A program made the position numbers and the translations under genes. Source: Sulfurovum sp. UBA1140 (GTDB taxonomy: Bacteria > Campylobacterota > Campylobacteria > Campylobacterales > Sulfurovaceae). From it: DNA of 64,000 nucleotides. The stretch covers positions 1,735 through 65,734 of the forward strand of contig DCAF01000008.1 of the NCBI GenBank assembly GCA_002311915.1. Direction: 5' to 3'. The notes under the pieces are model-generated. The model had not been told where the DNA came from, did not search any database, and was given only the letters and a program-made list of their open reading frames with translations. Shown here one piece after another: positions 38,011 through 48,414 of this stretch (position 1 is the stretch's first letter; every line of letters starts with the position of its first letter).

Positions 38011-38030
38011 TTTTTCTCCTTTAGTTTGGG

Positions 38031-40436: not shown

Positions 40437-42212
40437 TTAGCACTTAGCTCCTTTTTCTGGACAACCACAAGAGTAATCCAATACCTTAACATTAGACTCC
40501 ATGCTAATATCTATCACTTTTTTCGACCGTATATAATCACTTACTACCTCATATACAGCAGGGGTTGCTTTATCCATATTCTCACCCACACTCTGTAGGT
40601 TTCCTCCCCATGAAGAGACACGGTAGGTCTTTTTAATATCAATTGGCTCTCCAGCTATTTTAAATTCAGAGATTCTCTCTCCTGATTTTGCATCTATCTT
40701 AATGCTATAGGTGGCTCCCGTTAAACGGCTCATATCTCCACCCTGTTGAAGCAGTGGGTTTTCATTAAAGACATTGTCTGCAATATCTTCCATTAATTTG
40801 GCAATGACTGAACCTTTTAAATCAAAAGTATAGACTTCAGGATAGGTGATGGCTGTCATCTCATAAACATTGTCTTTTAAAATTTTGTCACCTGGAATCA
40901 GGGTGGTTCCCCAACGGTACCCAGGGGTAAAGACGATGTCACTTTTAACCTTCTCTTGAATCGCTTGACCAATAAGTGCATCAAATGTAGAGTAGAAGGT
41001 GTCTCGTTTATAGAGAATCCCTTTCGTCGTTCCTAGTACCTCATTTAACTCTTTATCAAATGGCTTATAGGCATCTGCTACGAGTTGTTCACCCACTTTA
41101 TCAGCAGGAATAAGATTAGAAGCCACAGGCATAAGTTTAAAGTTGTATCCTGCTACTTTTTTATCTTTAATATCAAGGTCAAGTCGTCCAATATACTTAC
41201 CGTGACTTCCCGAAATTAAGATAACCGTATCATTCACAACAATAGGTTTAGGACTAGGATCATGGGTATGTCCACTTAAAATAAAGTCTACACCTTTGAC
41301 CTTCTTCGCCAACTCTTGATCTACCGAGAACCCATCATGACTTAAGACCACAATACAGTCTACTTTTTTCTCATCTCTAAGTTCATTAACATACTCTTGA
41401 AGCGACTCATGTCTTAGGGCAAAACTCCAACCCTCTGTAAATCGCTTTGGATTGGCAGTTGAGGTAAATGGAAAGGATTGTCCTATAATACCAATCTTAG
41501 CTCCACCAATCTCTTTAATACTATAAGGAGGGAAAATTAGCTCCTCAAACTCATCAGAGAATGGGTCGTTGTCAATAACATTTTGAGAGATAAATTCACC
41601 GTTAAGTTTTTTTATCAACTCCATTACTCGCTCTTTACCGTAAGTAAACTCCCAGTGACCTACCATGACATCGACACCCAAGTAGTTTTGGGCATCAACA
41701 ATCGCTTCCCCTCTGGTTTTTAGAGCCACTGCTGTTCCCTGCCATGTATCCCCACTGTCTAAAAGCAGTACATTTTTTTCACCACGCTCTTTTTTAACAT
41801 GGTCAATAATAGGTTTCATATGGGCAATCCCACCCATCTTTCCAAACTTTTGAGCCAGTGCTTCAAAGTTATTATGGGTATCAAAATATTGGTCAAGAGA
41901 ACCTGACTCTATTCCATAATGTTTCTCAAAACTGTCACCACAAATAAACCCTGGAGTTCCTACCAAATTCTTAGCAGAAATCAATGTCGAGGGTTCACGC
42001 CAATAGAGTGGCTTAATGTGGGCATGAAGGTCACAGATATGAAGAATAGTAGCTTTACCTTTAGCTTCAAAATCGACCACGTCCGAAAATGAGAGTTTGG
42101 TAATTCTCTCTTTAACTGCTTTTGATTCACCTGCAAAAAGGTTGGTTCCCGTTGCACTTAAGAGTCCCAATGCTCCAGCAATATGTAAAAAGTCTCTTCT
42201 ACTAATATCCAT
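40437..42212 (-). CDS. soxB: Thiosulfohydrolase SoxB
   Basis: Tat signal SRRDF, DLHAH, YWREPS, DSGDTWQG, GHWEF, SHDG and SGHTH motifs. Confidence 0.97.
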   Translation of the reverse strand: MDISRRDFLHIAGALGLLSATGTNLFAGESKAVKERITKLSFSDVVDFEAKGKATILHICDLHAHIKPLYWREPSTLISAKNLVGTPGFICGDSFEKHYGIESGSLDQYFDTHNNFEALAQKFGKMGGIAHMKPIIDHVKKERGEKNVLLLDSGDTWQGTAVALKTRGEAIVDAQNYLGVDVMVGHWEFTYGKERVMELIKKLNGEFISQNVIDNDPFSDEFEELIFPPYSIKEIGGAKIGIIGQSFPFTSTANPKRFTEGWSFALRHESLQEYVNELRDEKKVDCIVVLSHDGFSVDQELAKKVKGVDFILSGHTHDPSPKPIVVNDTVILISGSHGKYIGRLDLDIKDKKVAGYNFKLMPVASNLIPADKVGEQLVADAYKPFDKELNEVLGTTKGILYKRDTFYSTFDALIGQAIQEKVKSDIVFTPGYRWGTTLIPGDKILKDNVYEMTAITYPEVYTFDLKGSVIAKLMEDIADNVFNENPLLQQGGDMSRLTGATYSIKIDAKSGERISEFKIAGEPIDIKKTYRVSSWGGNLQSVGENMDKATPAVYEVVSDYIRSKKVIDISMESNVKVLDYSCGCPEKGAKC

Positions 42213-42222
42213 CTATTGCCCC

Positions 42223-42987
42223 TTATCTTTTTAAGCCTGGAATGGCGATTGGTTGTTTCTCTTTTTGAGCCAAAGTTGAGATGTATACTTCAAGTCCAAC
42301 CATCTCTTTTGAACCAATAGGAATCACTTTTAGCAGTGCATTTTTCATACAACCTTGGAATCTTCGTTGAAGTGTTCTTAGGCTAGACTTGGTCATACGG
42401 TACGCTGGCCATGTCGCACCAGCACCTACTTTACCAAGGTCAGGAAGTGGCTGTGTTCGTAGAACCATTCCTATAATATCAGCAGAGTGGCAACTTAAAC
42501 AAGAGAGTCCTCGTCCACCACGGGCTGTTTTAAATGTTTTTTCACCCAAATCGTAAGAGGCTTTGATATGTTCATCGGCTTTTATATTGATGGTAAATTG
42601 CTCTTCGTTAGCTAATGATTTAACATATGCCAACATTGAAAACATCTTTGCATTTTTGAGTTTGTATCTCTCTTTGCCTTGTTCTGTCTGCATCGCTTGA
42701 AGCACTTGGTCAATACCTACAACATTGCCCATCTTTTTGATGTATCGTGGGAAACCAGCAATATATTTAGGTAGCTCTTTTTCTGAGACACCTAAAAATT
42801 TTGCCAATGCCTCTTCTCCTCCAAGGGTCTCTTCAAGTAGCTCTCCACCCTCTTCCACAAAGATATCAGCAGGGTTGTTTTCTAACATTTCAGTATACAT
42901 CGCTCTATCGGCATCACTCATGGCAAACTGCTCTCCAGCAGTTGCCACGGTCACCATAAGAGCCAGTGGTAATAATAGCTTTCTCAT
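42223..42987 (-). CDS. soxA: Monohaem SoxA
   Basis: Single CLSCH, WPAYR and RFQGC motifs. Confidence 0.93.
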   Translation of the reverse strand: MRKLLLPLALMVTVATAGEQFAMSDADRAMYTEMLENNPADIFVEEGGELLEETLGGEEALAKFLGVSEKELPKYIAGFPRYIKKMGNVVGIDQVLQAMQTEQGKERYKLKNAKMFSMLAYVKSLANEEQFTINIKADEHIKASYDLGEKTFKTARGGRGLSCLSCHSADIIGMVLRTQPLPDLGKVGAGATWPAYRMTKSSLRTLQRRFQGCMKNALLKVIPIGSKEMVGLEVYISTLAQKEKQPIAIPGLKR

Positions 42988-42990
42988 GGT

Positions 42991-43329
42991 TTAATCCTTT
43001 GGTTTAACTTTTTTACTTTTAGAGTTCTTCTCACCTTGGTTGTCTGTATAGTCAACCGTGATTTTTCCTTTTCCTGTTACTTTATACATGACTGAAAAAT
43101 AAGGGTTGGTTGAGATCGACTCCCATATCTTCATGGTGGTAAATGGTTTACCATCAAACGAGAAGGTAATGTTGTCAATATAGTGAGCAGGTTTGATTTT
43201 TCCATTCTTTTTATCTTTAATCATCCCTGTATCCATTGGGTGAATAACAATAAAGTCAACTTTGACGGTATCACCTATTTTAAACTTCTTTGGTTTAATC
43301 TTTATCATTGATTTTCTTACTTCTGCCAT
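42991..43329 (-). CDS. soxZ: SoxZ
   Basis: HPMDTG, PAHYI and ISTNPYF motifs. Confidence 0.95.
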   Translation of the reverse strand: MAEVRKSMIKIKPKKFKIGDTVKVDFIVIHPMDTGMIKDKKNGKIKPAHYIDNITFSFDGKPFTTMKIWESISTNPYFSVMYKVTGKGKITVDYTDNQGEKNSKSKKVKPKD

Positions 43330-43411
43330 GGTTAATCCCTTAATTATTAATATTTTTTCTGCCCGTGGGCTACTTCTATTGAAAAACTTACTTTATTGAA
43401 AAAAGTAATTA

Positions 43412-43894
43412 TTAACCACATCCACCAATGGTAACTTTAACACTTTTAGCCATCTGAATAAATGAACCATCACTAAGCTCTACAAGTGCTACAACTTCTT
43501 GTGTTTTACTCAACTTAACGCGTGTTGCAAAGTATCCTTTATCATTAGCAGGAGTCAGCATTACATCAGCACATCTAGCATTTCCATTTCCTTTATTTAA
43601 AATGTGAATTGCTTTAACATAATTTGCCTCTTCCATTGGATGGTCAACATTTATTTTCACAGGAACAACCGCACCATTTTCAGCAATTTCAGGAACACTT
43701 AGTTTGATTTTATCACTCTCTTTGGCTCCTTTTCCATCGGTAATGGCTTTAACAGCTTCATCAAATGACATATCGTTAGGACCCTTTTTTGCAGGTGCCT
43801 TTTGGGTCTCTTCTGCCAATAGTGTTGTTGGTACTGTAATGGTAGCTATAATTGATGTTGCAACCATACCTTGAATAAATTTTCTTCTTTCCAT
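43412..43894 (-). CDS. soxY: SoxY sulfur carrier
   Basis: Tat signal RRKF, PEIAENGAVVP, and terminal VTIGGCG. Confidence 0.97.
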   Translation of the reverse strand: MERRKFIQGMVATSIIATITVPTTLLAEETQKAPAKKGPNDMSFDEAVKAITDGKGAKESDKIKLSVPEIAENGAVVPVKINVDHPMEEANYVKAIHILNKGNGNARCADVMLTPANDKGYFATRVKLSKTQEVVALVELSDGSFIQMAKSVKVTIGGCG

Positions 43895-43912
43895 ATCTCT
43901 TGCTCCTTGGGA

Positions 43913-44485
43913 TTATTTTTTGACCGACATAACATAAGCAGTTAGGTCACAGATTTCTGATTCATTAAAGAGTTTAGTTGTTAAGTTTACCGTCATGTGG
44001 GTCTCTTTGTTATCAACTCTAGGGTCTGCAATCTTTTGATAAACAAACTGTGCATCTCTTACTTTGGTATCAACAAACATCGCTTTATAGCCTGTTAGGT
44101 CTGGACCAATGTTTCCAGCACCTTTAGCACCTTCGATGTTATGACAGGCAACACAGTTACCATACTGCTTGGCTACCTTTTTAACTTTTCCATCTTTGGT
44201 TTTTTTTTCAGTAAATTTTACAACACCTTTAGGTGCATCTCCTTTTACCTTTTTACCATTAAGGTTATGGAAAAAAAATGAGCCTCTTTTAATAGCTTCA
44301 AGGTCATCTAGTTTACAACTTTTTGGCATGGTAAACTTAGTAGCTTCTGCTAAGAGATCTTTTTCTATCAACTTACTCGCATCAGGCATATCATACGCTT
44401 TGGTCAAATCTGTAGCAAAAATTGTGACCGTTGCAGAGACGATTGCAAGGGATACCAAAGTAAATTGTTTCATACTTCTGTTCAT
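43913..44485 (-). CDS. soxX: SoxX cytochrome
   Basis: GNCVACH, GNIGPDL and THM motifs. Confidence 0.93.
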   Translation of the reverse strand: MNRSMKQFTLVSLAIVSATVTIFATDLTKAYDMPDASKLIEKDLLAEATKFTMPKSCKLDDLEAIKRGSFFFHNLNGKKVKGDAPKGVVKFTEKKTKDGKVKKVAKQYGNCVACHNIEGAKGAGNIGPDLTGYKAMFVDTKVRDAQFVYQKIADPRVDNKETHMTVNLTTKLFNESEICDLTAYVMSVKK

Positions 44486-44530
44486 TCAAACTCCTTTTTA
44501 AGTGATACTTCAAGGAGAACTATAACGAAG

Positions 44531-44550
44531 AAGTGTAAATAAAGTGTAAA
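44531..44550 (-). promoter_or_regulatory. Tandem direct-repeat box TTTACA-N5-TTTACA facing soxX
   Basis: Minus strand TTTACACTTTATTTACACTT (11-bp period), with -10 TATAGT at 44524-44519. Confidence 0.6.
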
Positions 44551-44617
44551 AAATAATTATTTTATATAATATTTATTTATTTTAATAAAGAAGTGTGAGT
44601 AATCTATATTTTTCTGT

Positions 44618-44634
44618 TTTACAAATTTTTTACA
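44618..44634 (+). promoter_or_regulatory. Tandem direct-repeat box TTTACA-N5-TTTACA facing dsrE
   Basis: TTTACAAATTTTTTACA (11-bp period), with extended -10 TGTTATGAT at 44642-44650. Confidence 0.6.
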
Positions 44635-44680
44635 ATTATAATGTTATGATGTAGTTGAAATTTAATATCAAGGAGACTTT

Positions 44681-45148
44681 ATGAAAAAAATGATTCTGTT
44701 GCTACTTATTAATCTCTCGATGGTCTCTGCCGAAGATGCTTCGGTTAAAGTGGTGTATGATTTAACAACTAAAAATTTAGCCAGTTTTGAATTAAGAGTT
44801 CTAAAATCAATTGTGGCAAATAAAACCCACTATGAGGGACTGCTTAAAGAGTTGGATGTAACCGTGGTGGTTCATGGTGGAGCTTATAGATTTTTTACCA
44901 TTGACCCTAAAAATTCAACGTATAAAAAGGACAAAGCCCTTATTGAAACACACAAGACATTGGCAAAGCGAATTAAATCTATGGTTGAGACCTATGATGT
45001 AGAGTTTTTGATATGTGGAGTAGGAATGAAGAAGCATGGCTTAAAGAAAGAGGATGTCTACAAATTTGTAAAAATCATACCCAACTCTATGATTGGACTG
45101 ATTGATCGACAAAACGAGGGGTATGCTTATATACCTATTCGAGAGTGA
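44681..45148 (+). CDS. Secreted DsrE-family protein
   Basis: Signal peptide, VVYD, VVVHGGA, EFLICG and QNEGYAYIP motifs. Confidence 0.88.
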   Translation: MKKMILLLLINLSMVSAEDASVKVVYDLTTKNLASFELRVLKSIVANKTHYEGLLKELDVTVVVHGGAYRFFTIDPKNSTYKKDKALIETHKTLAKRIKSMVETYDVEFLICGVGMKKHGLKKEDVYKFVKIIPNSMIGLIDRQNEGYAYIPIRE

Positions 45149-46289
45149 ACGCATATCTAAAGGTTGTTCCCTCTCCTCTTTTGGAGTCTACCTTTAAGGT
45201 AATCTCCTCTTCATCAATAATATCTTTAACGATATTAAGCCCTATGCCAAATCCCCCTTTGGATTCATCTTCACGGAAGTAACGAGAAAATATTTTATTA
45301 ACATTGATAATGCCTACACCATGATCTTTGACTTCAAAGATGATATGCTTATCTTTTTGATAGAAATTTATGATGATATGACTCTGGTCGGAACTATATT
45401 TAATGGCATTAGAGATGGTGTTGTCAATAATGCGTTGTAGTTTTGTTTTAGAAAAGTTATAATTGATTTTGGGCATAATGTTGGTCATGATTTGAATGTT
45501 TTTAAGGTTGGCAATCTCTTGAAAGTAGTCGACTCTATTTTGAATAAACTCTCCCATATCTATTTTTTGAATTTTGTGTTCTACACGACCTTGCTTAATG
45601 AGGTAGTCCATATCATCATAGATGGTGGCTAATGTTTTAGACGCAGATTTCATTCTTTTCAGATATTTATTGTTGCCATACTTATTAGCAAAAAGATCTG
45701 CATTTAGATTAATAATACTCAACGGAGTATTAATTTCATGCATGGAGTCTTTAATAAAATTATCAAGTTGTCGGTTCATGTTCTCAAAGGGGGCAGAGAA
45801 ATTTTTAAGCAACAGCAACGAGAAGATAAAAAGCATGATTAAAATACCCAAAATGGTTAAAAGAGCAAAAAAGTAAATCTCATTGGCCGTATGAATGGTA
45901 GAGACCAGTAGATATTTGGCTCCAAAATAGTATTTATCAGGAAGAGGATAGATAAGATAGTAGTGTTTCCCTTCGTTATAAAAGCCTTTACTAAAAGAGG
46001 AGGGCTCAAAATCTAACGAAGAGAAGACCTCTTTGTACTGATTGGTATAGAGTGCGGTACGATACTCTTTGTAGCGTGGGAAATGGTAAACTTTGTCACT
46101 ATTGTTGTAGCGTTGCATCGAGGAGATGACTCTTTTTGCCTGTTCTTGTAAAGAGAGTTCTACTTTGGCTTCATCTATTTGTAGAAGTAACATCACATAG
46201 ATAATAAGAGGAGTGATTAATATAACTGCTAAAATAGAGGTGTAGATGGTTGCATATTTAAAAGCAAACTTTTTAGAATCAAAGGTCAA
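45135..46289 (-). CDS. Two-component sensor histidine kinase
   Basis: Two TM helices, H-box SMHEINTPL, N box SNAIKY, DHGVGI and GGFGIGL. Probable TTG start at 46289. Confidence 0.93.
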   Translation of the reverse strand: MTFDSKKFAFKYATIYTSILAVILITPLIIYVMLLLQIDEAKVELSLQEQAKRVISSMQRYNNSDKVYHFPRYKEYRTALYTNQYKEVFSSLDFEPSSFSKGFYNEGKHYYLIYPLPDKYYFGAKYLLVSTIHTANEIYFFALLTILGILIMLFIFSLLLLKNFSAPFENMNRQLDNFIKDSMHEINTPLSIINLNADLFANKYGNNKYLKRMKSASKTLATIYDDMDYLIKQGRVEHKIQKIDMGEFIQNRVDYFQEIANLKNIQIMTNIMPKINYNFSKTKLQRIIDNTISNAIKYSSDQSHIIINFYQKDKHIIFEVKDHGVGIINVNKIFSRYFREDESKGGFGIGLNIVKDIIDEEEITLKVDSKRGEGTTFRYAFTLE

Positions 46290-46938
46290 TACTGTACCCC
46301 ACACCACGAATATTTTTGATAAAATCTTGCTTTAATTTTTTACGTAAGTTCCCCACTTGTACACGAATATTGGTAGGTTCTATCCACTCCCCCCAAATTT
46401 CTTCCCAAAACATCTCGTAACTGACCACAGAGCCTCGCTGTTTAATAAGAAGTTCTAAAATTTTTGTCTCTATTTTCCCCAGTGTTATGATTTGCTTTTC
46501 TAATATAAGTTGCATTTTTTTGGTATTGTATTGATAGTTAAAAGCCAACTCTATGAGATTCTCTGAAGAGTTAAAACAGTGCAGTTTAATGACATGTTCA
46601 ACACGAAGTTTTAGCTCGGCTAAATCAAAAGGTTTCCGAATATAGTCACAGCCTCCACAGGCATACCCTTGTATTAAATCTTCTATATCAGTTAATGATG
46701 TGATAAAAATGGCAGGGGTACAGATATTGACCTGACGTAAAGAGGAGAGAAGTTGAAATCCATTCTGCTCACCTGCTACCCTAACATCTAAAAGCAGAAG
46801 ATCAAAAGGTTTATTATAAATAGCATCGAACGCACACTCTCCATTGGTGTAGTGTTCGACCTCATATCCTGAATCTTCTAAAAACTCCTGCATACTGATT
46901 GCTAATATGGTCTCATCTTCTAATATAAGTATTCTCAT
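46279..46938 (-). CDS. OmpR-family response regulator
   Basis: Receiver LLLLDV..DYIRKPF and winged-helix tail IRVQVGNLRKKL..IRGVGY. Confidence 0.95.
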   Translation of the reverse strand: MRILILEDETILAISMQEFLEDSGYEVEHYTNGECAFDAIYNKPFDLLLLDVRVAGEQNGFQLLSSLRQVNICTPAIFITSLTDIEDLIQGYACGGCDYIRKPFDLAELKLRVEHVIKLHCFNSSENLIELAFNYQYNTKKMQLILEKQIITLGKIETKILELLIKQRGSVVSYEMFWEEIWGEWIEPTNIRVQVGNLRKKLKQDFIKNIRGVGYSIDL

Positions 46939-48041
46939 TGTATCTCCCCTACCTTTCTCTCTTTATAGTTATTCTCTAAGACAATATCTATTAACTCATT
47001 TTTTGTGTATCTCTCTAAAATCTCTTTGGCCTCTTTGGTTAGAGAGATTTTATCTTCTTTATGAAGTTTGGGTAACCATTCGATTAAACGTTTATCGTAA
47101 ACGGTTTTATAACTGCCCGATGGATGCTCCCAGAGTTTAACAACTTTATAAACATCTTCATTCGAGAGTCGGGTAAAGGTAGAGATGTCTTGGTATCTTT
47201 TTTTATAATGCTCAACGGTCTCAGGAGGTAGAACAATAAGATATTTTCCTATCTCTTCTTTTGCTCCATTGTACATCGGTTCAAGGATATAAAGTATCTT
47301 CTCTTTATAGTAATAACCAAGAGTGCTAAGTTCTGCCCAATCAATAAAGTCAGCTTTTCTTTTTAATTTATTGTTAAAATTCTTATTGGCAATAATGTAT
47401 TCGTTTAAAAAAGGAAACTCTTGCATTAATGAGGCTTGTTGCAGATATTTAGTATCCATCAGTGCAAAAAGTTCAACTCCTTGTTCATGTAGCTTTTTAG
47501 AGAACTCATCCACAAATTTAATAACCTCTAAGTAGCCAATATACTCTGCGCCATTGCGTATAGGAATGGTTGCCTTAAACGTTAACATCCGACCTGTCTC
47601 CATACCAACTTTGGGTCGTTTGTTATGTTTAAGCTTCTCTAAATCGTCACGAAACCACCACATGGGCATCCCTGCCGAAGTATTTCCCCAACTCTGTGCA
47701 AAAATAAAAAAATCATTATCAAAAACTTGTAGGCGAAGAGTTTTAATGTGTGTGTACTCTTTAAATCGCTTGGTTATGGCACTCAAAATTTCATAGGCTT
47801 GTTGTTGATTATCTGCTGTTAAAGCATTTTTTAAAGCACCATCTTCTGAGAGCGCTAATGAAAAAGAGAGTAAATCAGCATTTTCATAGGCTAAATCTTT
47901 TTGAAAATCATCAATCACATAGCGACTTAATGCTTGGAGTCTATCTTTATTGCTCTCTTTTGAAAAAAAAAGAATAGAAATAGATAATATAAAAAGAACA
48001 ATAAAAAGAATAGTAAGATATAAGCCTGATATATATTTCAT
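46935..48041 (-). CDS. Stand-alone membrane-anchored Cache-domain sensor protein
   Basis: Single N-terminal TM helix and a double-Cache-like region (KVGMETGRMLTFKATIPI..IGYLEVI). No kinase or second TM. Confidence 0.7.
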   Translation of the reverse strand: MKYISGLYLTILFIVLFILSISILFFSKESNKDRLQALSRYVIDDFQKDLAYENADLLSFSLALSEDGALKNALTADNQQQAYEILSAITKRFKEYTHIKTLRLQVFDNDFFIFAQSWGNTSAGMPMWWFRDDLEKLKHNKRPKVGMETGRMLTFKATIPIRNGAEYIGYLEVIKFVDEFSKKLHEQGVELFALMDTKYLQQASLMQEFPFLNEYIIANKNFNNKLKRKADFIDWAELSTLGYYYKEKILYILEPMYNGAKEEIGKYLIVLPPETVEHYKKRYQDISTFTRLSNEDVYKVVKLWEHPSGSYKTVYDKRLIEWLPKLHKEDKISLTKEAKEILERYTKNELIDIVLENNYKERKVGEIQ

Positions 48042-48091
48042 CGGATAACTATAGTTAAAATATAATTAATAGTTAATTAAAAATTTTCCGA

Positions 48092-48216
48092 TATAATACG
48101 CCCTAAAATTGTTGTCTCGACCAAGAGCGTTGCAACAGCCCCGATATTTTGGGAAGAGCCAAAGTGCTAGAATAGGTTGGTTACCTATCAACTAAAAATT
48201 ATTTAAAGGTCTTATA
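48092..48216 (+). promoter_or_regulatory. rpmE promoter (-10 TATAAT) and structured ~110-nt leader
   Basis: TATAAT at 48092-48097. Stems TGTTG/CAACA (48110-48137) and ATAGGT/ACCTAT (48172-48188). Confidence 0.5.
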
Positions 48217-48414
48217 ATGAGAAAAGATATACACCCAGACTATAAACTATGTTCTGTTACTTGTGCATGTGGAAACAGTTTTGAAGTGAGAACAGACAAA
48301 GAGAAAATGACCATTGATATTTGTAATGAGTGTCACCCATTCTTTACAGGTTCAGAAAAAATTGTTGATGCTGCTGGTAGAATTGACAAATTTAAGAAAA
48401 AATATAACCTTTAA
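48217..48414 (+). CDS. rpmE: 50S ribosomal protein L31 (Zn-binding type A)
   Basis: [23 protein letters not shown] and GRIDKF motifs. Confidence 0.98.

Follow-up and report, generated by a model that had tools for sequence, protein, structure and literature searches.

The stretch of DNA analysed here (the window, 64,000 nucleotides of Sulfurovum sp. UBA1140) contains the soxXYZAB operon, a divergently transcribed gene for a DsrE-family protein, and a regulator operon encoding the orthologues of the response regulator SulR and the kinase SulS of Sulfurimonas hydrogeniphila. The genes and the predicted promoter elements between soxX and dsrE are as follows.

40437-44485, minus strand: soxXYZAB operon, first predicted target (Pfam)
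43913-44485, minus strand: soxX (Pfam)
43412-43894, minus strand: soxY (Pfam)
42991-43329, minus strand: soxZ (Pfam)
42223-42987, minus strand: soxA (Pfam)
40437-42212, minus strand: soxB (Pfam)
44519-44524, minus strand: predicted -10 hexamer of soxX, TATAGT, 9 nt (CTTCTTCGT) 3' of the proximal box
44534-44550, minus strand: predicted soxX-side operator, TTTACA-CTTTA-TTTACA, two direct repeats in tandem with a period of 11 bp
44618-44634, plus strand: predicted dsrE-side operator, TTTACA-AATTT-TTTACA, two direct repeats in tandem with a period of 11 bp
44642-44650, plus strand: predicted extended -10 of dsrE, TG-T-TATGAT, 10 nt (ATTATAATGT) 3' of the proximal box
44681-45148, plus strand: DsrE-family protein of 155 aa, second predicted target (Pfam PF02635)
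45135-46307, minus strand: sensor histidine kinase, SulS orthologue (Pfam HisKA and HATPase_c)
46279-46938, minus strand: OmpR/PhoB-family response regulator, SulR orthologue (Pfam Response_reg and Trans_reg_C)
46935-48041, minus strand: stand-alone dCache_3-like membrane protein, first gene of the regulator operon (weak Pfam match)

A first-pass annotation of this DNA had noted an OmpR-type gene 1.6 kb from the promoters, and Pfam confirmed an OmpR-type regulator at 46279-46938. In NCBIfam, there was no equivalog assignment for the regulator or the kinase and no match for the Cache, DsrE and DUF302 proteins; PhoB models were among the best matches of the regulator, which scored 117 bits against cut-offs of 270-296 and is not a PhoB equivalog. 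The dCache_3 match of the first gene (E 1.6e-5, 25.0 bits) lies just under the curated cut-off of 25.7. A Cache protein is encoded upstream of the regulator and kinase in each of the 19 extended loci and in the majority of the 80 named loci described below, and the S. hydrogeniphila counterpart is 31% identical to that of the window. The N-terminal hydrophobic stretch of the DsrE protein, whose orthologues are 57-71% identical, looks like a signal peptide. The AT-rich gap between the Cache gene and rpmE (48217-48414, plus strand) contains a G+C-rich stretch, ggctcttcccaaaatatcggggctgttgcaacgctcttggtcgagacaac on the minus strand, at 48100-48165.

The region between soxX and dsrE is 195 bp long and holds two exact copies of TTTACA-N5-TTTACA, one per strand. 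The first-pass annotation had described tandem TTTACA repeats of 11-bp period that face each divergent gene and end 9-10 nt before a -10 hexamer, and both descriptions were confirmed: the exact copies lie at 44534-44550 (minus strand) and 44618-44634 (plus strand), both periods are exactly 11 bp, each pair is oriented to its own gene, and the spacers to the -10 read as N9 for soxX and N10 for dsrE. The N10 of dsrE is N9 in every relative. On the minus strand, the soxX ATG (44485) lies beyond TATAGT, and the soxX box spans approximately -38 to -22, counted from the predicted start of transcription. On the plus strand, the dsrE -10 consists of TG at 44642-44643 and TATGAT at 44645-44650, followed by the ATG at 44681. 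A perfect TATAAT is also present at 44637-44642, only 2 nt past the proximal dsrE box, a position that does not fit the conserved geometry.

When the sequences were read, a -35-type hexamer at 17±1 bp was absent from both promoters. A distance of 20 bp separates the distal TTTACA from the -10, which is more than a normal -35 allows, and promoters of this layout, lacking a usable -35, fit dependence on an activator. The dsrE promoter further contains GTTATGAT followed by TTGAAA, which is the conserved core of the soxX promoters of relatives. The two mirrored boxes are 84 bp apart in the window versus 26-57 bp in relatives; because this phasing is not conserved, we propose no looping model.

The boxes are statistically exceptional. 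In the window, two exact boxes were observed against 0.06 expected, none of 100 shuffles reached two, and a search allowing at most one mismatch found no site in the window beyond these two. The first-pass annotation had called for a genome-wide scan, which returned three exact N5 copies in the 2.0-Mb genome (36% G+C), two of them in the soxX/dsrE region. When a box with at most one mismatch was required together with N9 and TAnnnT, three sites were found genome-wide, and the intergenic rate was 0.0055 per kb per strand. Promoters of Campylobacterota are known to carry periodic T-rich tracts upstream of an extended -10, and TTTACA is one base from TTGACA, so the repeats could be regarded as generic AT-rich promoter features (a -35-like hexamer with periodic T-rich elements) instead of sites of a specific regulator. 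This explanation has been largely refuted, and we consider it extremely unlikely. The counts above speak against it, with only three exact copies and three sites of the full N9 architecture at one mismatch or fewer in 2 Mb, and the spacings to the -10 are 9 and 20 bp instead of 17. Box presence also tracks the SulRS orthologue perfectly, as described below, and EMSA and footprinting have been published for the orthologous regulator (PMC12936845).

The first-pass annotation had made its proposal depend on the conservation of the boxes in orthologous promoters, and they were found to be conserved in two samples. SoxX orthologues were found in a further 31 genomes from three genera of the family, and 29 of the loci were read. 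The tandem box TTTAYA-N5-TTTACA was present in 26/29 of these soxX promoters, at a constant distance to a -10 that was usually TG-extended, while the flanking intergenic DNA had diverged around the boxes; the consensus of the 29 relatives' soxX promoters is tTTTTACAcTTtTTTTACACTTCTTtGTTAtnAT. A kinase scan of named genomes then gave 80 loci, selected by the kinase and not by the box; the nearest were from uncultured Sulfurovum MAGs and those farther away from Nitratiruptor, Hydrogenimonas, Sulfurospirillum and Sulfurimonas. All 63 kinase-soxX junctions in this set, from several Campylobacterota families and including Sulfurovum, Sulfurimonas, Nitratiruptor and Hydrogenimonas, carried the box (57 exact, 6 with one mismatch), down to a kinase identity of 45%. 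The N5 spacing was invariant in all 63, and TAnnnT followed at N8-10 in every one, at N9 in nearly all of the junctions listed and usually preceded by TG.

Box presence also followed the presence of the kinase orthologue, with boxes in 26/26 genomes that have it and in 0/4 that do not. In the four genomes without tandem repeats at soxX (G015, G017, G102 and G132), the best kinase matches were only 35-38% identical, so these are paralogues. Six genomes had boxes but no kinase at the soxX locus, and each of the six encodes an orthologue of 63-83% identity, either in another part of the genome or at the edge of a contig. The soxX promoters of G015 and G017, which belong to the window's own genus (L046 and L043), retain degenerate box remnants, TTTAGG and TTTATA, together with a perfect consensus TGnTATAAT, which looks like a compensatory strengthening of the -10 after loss of the activator. 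The co-losses should be counted as at least two independent events, not four. We believe that this natural joint loss of regulator and boxes amounts to in vivo genetic support for the link between them.

The order Cache protein-regulator-kinase-box-soxX-soxY was found on one strand in 19/19 extended loci. This adjacency bears on the possibility that the boxes belong to another OmpR-family regulator; candidates would be the other regulator-kinase pairs, such as those encoded on contigs C44, C65, C66 and C68. Sites of OmpR-family regulators look alike and the window's genome (G000) has several paralogues of 31-39% identity, but the pair is adjacent to the boxes in every lineage, the boxes were lost together with this same regulator-kinase pair, and binding data are published for its orthologue (PMC12936845). 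We therefore regard binding by another regulator as very unlikely.

The system is no longer an unknown one, as an orthologous two-component system, SulRS of Sulfurimonas hydrogeniphila NW10, was described experimentally by Zhong et al. (iScience, February 2026; PMC12936845). SulR belongs to the OmpR family, and phosphorylated SulR shifted in EMSA and protected from DNase both Px, the promoter between sulS and soxX, and another promoter, Py (PMC12936845). SulS binds thiosulfate with a Kd of approximately 124 uM, thermophoresis data were published, and SulR binding was also reported at the soxCDYZ promoter in Sulfurimonas, with no motif given (PMC12936845). In an E. coli dual-plasmid reporter, SulRS repressed Px without thiosulfate and activated it at high thiosulfate, exceeding the control only at 100 mM (PMC12936845). 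The authors defined the operator as two direct TTACA repeats 13 bp apart, and noted that homologues arranged in the same order occur in Sulfurovum and further genera; their data were all obtained in vitro or in a heterologous host and concern a single species (PMC12936845).

Both published footprint sequences match genome G537 exactly and within the coordinate range of the paper, which identifies G537 as S. hydrogeniphila. Compared with its proteins, the window regulator is 53.7% identical to SulR (reciprocal best hit, 227 versus 147 bits) and the window kinase 46.6% identical to SulS (reciprocal best hit, 350 versus 179 bits). The phospho-acceptor D51 is conserved in the receiver domain of the regulator (DLLLLD51V in the alignment), and the recognition-helix region IRVQ..NL.KKL is common to the window regulator and SulR. 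In the kinase tree, all sox-linked kinases fell into one group with 100/100 support and the window lay inside the Sulfurovum clade, and a non-sox Sulfurimonas paralogue clade was not cleanly separated from the sox-linked group. The window element is therefore predicted to be the Sulfurovum counterpart of the known SulR operator. Four Sulfurimonas genomes (G537, G535, G533 and G288; L135-L138) also have a second Cache-regulator-kinase operon that is not beside sox, with a kinase 42-45% identical to that of the window, and no TTTACA boxes were found near these paralogous loci.

We propose that the SulR orthologue, whose gene lies 1.6 kb away, uses the two boxes as its operators and that they serve thiosulfate-driven class-II activation of the soxX and dsrE promoters, and we consider this probable with good confidence. 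The claim of the first-pass annotation that the boxes form the operator of a dedicated sox activator is in line with this, and is supported by the conservation, the co-occurrence with the kinase and the SulRS orthology. The PhoB-like geometry suggested there, with an 11-bp tandem over the -35 region approximately 10 bp before the -10, is the feature that has been conserved, and a 17-bp box that ends 9-10 bp from the -10, as here, is the layout established for the pho box of PhoB. The kinase, perhaps aided by the Cache protein encoded with it, would sense thiosulfate in the periplasm and phosphorylate the regulator on D51. A head-to-tail regulator dimer would then occupy TTTACA-N5-TTTACA at approximately -38 to -22, replace the missing -35 contact as PhoB does, and recruit RNA polymerase to the (extended) -10, presumably by touching region 4 of sigma-70, so that soxXYZAB would be activated leftwards and dsrE rightwards.

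The boxes could instead act mainly as a repressor operator, at which unphosphorylated or low-level SulR blocks polymerase over the -35 to -10 region until thiosulfate relieves the block. The published data offer some support for this, since SulRS lowered the reporter output in E. coli when thiosulfate was lacking and the DNase footprint reaches over the -10 region (PMC12936845). However, the same reporter rose above the control at high thiosulfate, and TTTACA may not be read by the sigma-70 of E. coli as it is by the native polymerase. The lack of a usable -35 also fits a promoter that depends on an activator, and in the lineages without SulRS the boxes have gone and the -10 has become a better one, TGnTATAAT, as expected after the loss of an activator. 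We consider a mainly repressive function rather unlikely.

The definition of the operator needs comment. In 19 Sulfurimonas promoters, the conserved signal was again TTTACA-N5-TTTACA-N9-TAnnnT. The second repeat of the published pair, GTTACACT, sits where sister species have GTTAAACT, GTTATACT or GATAAACT, among which only T, A and the final T are conserved; this is the pattern of a -10 hexamer, so the published second repeat looks like a -10. Py fits the same architecture as TTAACA-CAAAT-TTTATA-N9-TACAAT. The published consensus TTTAYATTTAKKAGWTACAMTTA matched 1/401 genomes of the order, and we set it aside as an operator definition because it is too species-specific. The published DNase footprint starts inside the N5 spacer, so that the proximal box and the -10 region are covered and the distal box lies outside, and this exclusion of the distal box is in disagreement with the 11-bp reading. 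Judged by the alignments, the 11-bp pho-box-like operator is nevertheless the more likely model compared with the published 13-bp pair.

The footprints were placed at -51..-17 (Px) and -57..-14 (Py) relative to the reported starts (PMC12936845). These reported starts lie approximately 30 nt 3' of the conserved TAnnnT, near the ribosome-binding site (L117, L249), which is an unusual distance from any -10-like element, and they may be processed 5' ends instead of primary starts.

Whether dsrE is a second target was judged from its relatives. In the sister genus, the dsrE orthologue (57-68% identity) is divergent from the Cache gene, and 7/7 loci carried TTTAYA-N5-TTTAYA with N9 and TAnnnT toward the dsrE operon. 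Among named Sulfurovum loci with dsrE divergent from the regulator operon, a dsrE-facing box with at most one mismatch was found in 9/11, against the background of 0.0055 per kb per strand. Mirrored boxes thus recur in the family, in the dsrE/Cache-gene intergenic regions: at L157, L162, L163, L175, L177, L179 and L190, back-to-back boxes face dsrE on one side and the Cache-regulator-kinase operon on the other. This implies positive autoregulation, as a prediction for the lineages with a box facing the Cache operon and not for the window, where the region upstream of the Cache gene (48042-48216) contained no box and autoregulation is therefore without support. A published transcriptomic study reported that Sulfurovum indicum grown on thiosulfate up-regulates soxABXY1Z1 together with the upstream dsrE, soxW and soxH1, with a 2.2-3.8-fold induction of the dsrE upstream of sox (PMC10045233), and these transcriptomic data independently support the co-regulation of dsrE.

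It could still be that only the soxX box is functional and that the dsrE box is weak or a by-product of rearrangement. Its N10 spacing deviates from N9, its flanks are TTTACAAAT and TTTACAATT (AAT/ATT) instead of TTTACACTT, its PWM score is 18.2 compared with 29.5 for the soxX box, and the DsrE orthologues of three same-genus genomes, which stand in unrelated contexts, have no clear tandem box. On the other hand, both hexamers on the dsrE side are exact, the core of GTTATGAT and TTGAAA matches the sox promoters of relatives, the dsrE box TTTACAAATTTTTTACA is identical to the box that Nitratiruptor-like genomes have at soxX, the dsrE promoters of the sister genus carry boxes, and dsrE is induced by thiosulfate in S. 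indicum (PMC10045233). We consider a soxX box acting on its own to be unlikely, and we retain dsrE as the second predicted target.

The rearrangement itself has left a trace. A 26-nt relic of the sulS 3' end (TTACTCACACTTCTTTATTAAAATAA) is present at 44577-44602 (minus strand), just upstream of the soxX boxes; it duplicates the kinase terminus (...YTF...K and the stop) and aligns with the kinase 3' end and the intergenic region of relatives, whereas the real kinase ends at 45135. The relic marks the old sulS-soxX junction and the insertion point of a dsrE cassette. Taken with the dsrE boxes of the sister genus and with the GTTATGAT and TTGAAA that the dsrE promoter has in common with sox promoters, these comparisons point to the secondary insertion, between sulS and soxX, of a dsrE cassette that brought its own box promoter; this insertion would have created the mirror image.

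In complete genomes of the sister genus, a further box is found before a DUF302 gene downstream of soxB, as an internal promoter; the homologous junction in the window (38011-38030) lacks one. One complete Sulfurovum-family genome (G083, contig C1) has identical box promoters at 1764633, 1768516 and 1772399 (L086, L091 and L092), downstream of soxB and exactly 3883 bp apart. Each of them precedes a DUF302 gene of approximately 333 aa, which points to a tandem triplication of a unit driven by the SulR box.

The first-pass annotation had also supposed that the boxes define a sulfur-oxidation regulon, and this was supported for soxXYZAB and dsrE and not for a wider set, as soxCDYZ has no box and sites are few genome-wide. 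In the region upstream of soxCDYZ (contig C45, upstream of 18954), no box was found and the best PWM score was 5.7 versus 29.5 for soxX; a consensus-like sigma-70 promoter, TTGACT-N18-TATAAT, is present there. This absence agrees with the literature, in which soxCDYZ expression is reported to be thiosulfate-independent. The predicted regulon in this genome is thus small: it consists of dsrE and the soxXYZAB operon, and nowhere else in the genome was a convincing site found. If the downstream porin-like, thioredoxin-like, DsrE-paralogue and DUF302 genes are co-transcribed with soxXYZAB, the regulon would take them in as well.

The remaining sites were not convincing. The third exact copy (C77:14242) was rejected as a SulR site; it lies at the promoter of a PpiC-type isomerase gene and fba, where relatives conserve a different motif, TTTACAAATCATTTAyy; the second hexamer is not conserved in them, and the motif is also present in G015 and G017, both of which lack SulRS. 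Family-wide, this promoter of the PpiC-type peptidyl-prolyl isomerase and fba reads TTTACAAATCATTTAyy-N7-9-TAnAAT (L224-L236), with TTAAYRAATGATTTA in more distant relatives, and it is probably the site of another, SulRS-independent regulator. Other PWM matches (C65:13538, C1:42, C65:4334, C72:20463 and C24:20290) were T-rich, and none adjoined sulfur genes. The second-best PWM score in the genome (26.9) belongs to a box-like element at C65:13541, TCTACA-TTTTT-TTTACA-CTTTTTTGA-TATATAAT, between tolB and an NlpC/P60 gene. The approximately 290 nt 3' of it contain no ORF of at least 90 aa, and the element may belong to an unannotated small gene or RNA or be a chance match.

Putting these comparisons together, we lean towards a joint reading, with somewhat better than even confidence: the true SulR operator would be TTTACA-N5-TTTACA, with the second TTACA of the published pair being the -10; this architecture would be nearly invariant across at least four named Campylobacterota families, at a fixed 9 bp from an extended -10; and the regulon would extend to a DsrE-like protein that seems to have a signal peptide and, in some lineages, to DUF302 and the regulator operon. 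If the wider regulon is real, it would point to accessory components of thiosulfate oxidation that have gone unrecognised. In sulfide-rich vents and sediments, Sulfurovum and Sulfurimonas are the dominant organisms, and the switch for their thiosulfate oxidation was unknown before the SulRS paper of 2026. What this study adds, as predictions from comparative sequence analysis, is the operator in Sulfurovaceae, dsrE and the sister-genus DUF302 gene as regulon members, the secondary insertion of dsrE between sulS and soxX, and the PhoB-like 11-bp reading of the operator. All the kinase-soxX junctions examined, from several families, show the architecture, which gives a sharper and testable operator definition, while the promoter evidence ties the DsrE-family protein (and in the sister genus DUF302) to the thiosulfate regulon in agreement with published transcriptomics. 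No new kind of mechanism is revealed, and the added value, in regulon members, operator definition and rearrangement history, is modest.

Among known systems, SulRS of S. hydrogeniphila is the closest, with the same gene order in both: first a Cache-like gene, for which the annotation in Sulfurimonas is an ABC substrate-binding protein, then the OmpR-family regulator, the EnvZ-like two-TM kinase and soxXYZAB, with TTTACA-containing direct repeats over the -35 region before soxX in both, and with D51 in both regulators. In contrast, the window belongs to Sulfurovaceae and has dsrE wedged between sulS and soxX with a second, mirrored operator; soxCDYZ here has no box in a sequence test, whereas SulR binding was reported there in Sulfurimonas in a paper that gives no motif, and dsrE and DUF302 are not mentioned as targets in that paper (PMC12936845). 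The likeness to the Pho box bound by PhoB in E. coli lies in the two direct repeats of 11-bp period that replace the -35 approximately 10 bp before the -10, and in the regulator superfamily; the half-site is TTTACA here versus CTGTCAT, and the signal, by analogy with SulRS, would be thiosulfate here versus phosphate. The F and C boxes bound by OmpR at ompF and ompC of E. coli have a half-site, GTTACAnnnn, that resembles TTTACA, as the SulRS authors noted (PMC12936845), and are bound in tandem, head to tail, as we propose for the window. They differ in forming arrays of at least three 20-bp units farther upstream with hierarchical occupancy, whereas here a single 17-bp unit abuts the -10. Similarly, SoxR (ArsR family) of Paracoccus pantotrophus and TspRS of Acidithiobacillus caldus have an adjacent regulator gene and thiosulfate-responsive control of sox, but SoxR is a repressor with palindromic operators and TspRS is a two-component system with a sigma-54 enhancer-binding regulator, and both are unrelated to SulRS in family and mechanism (PMC12936845).
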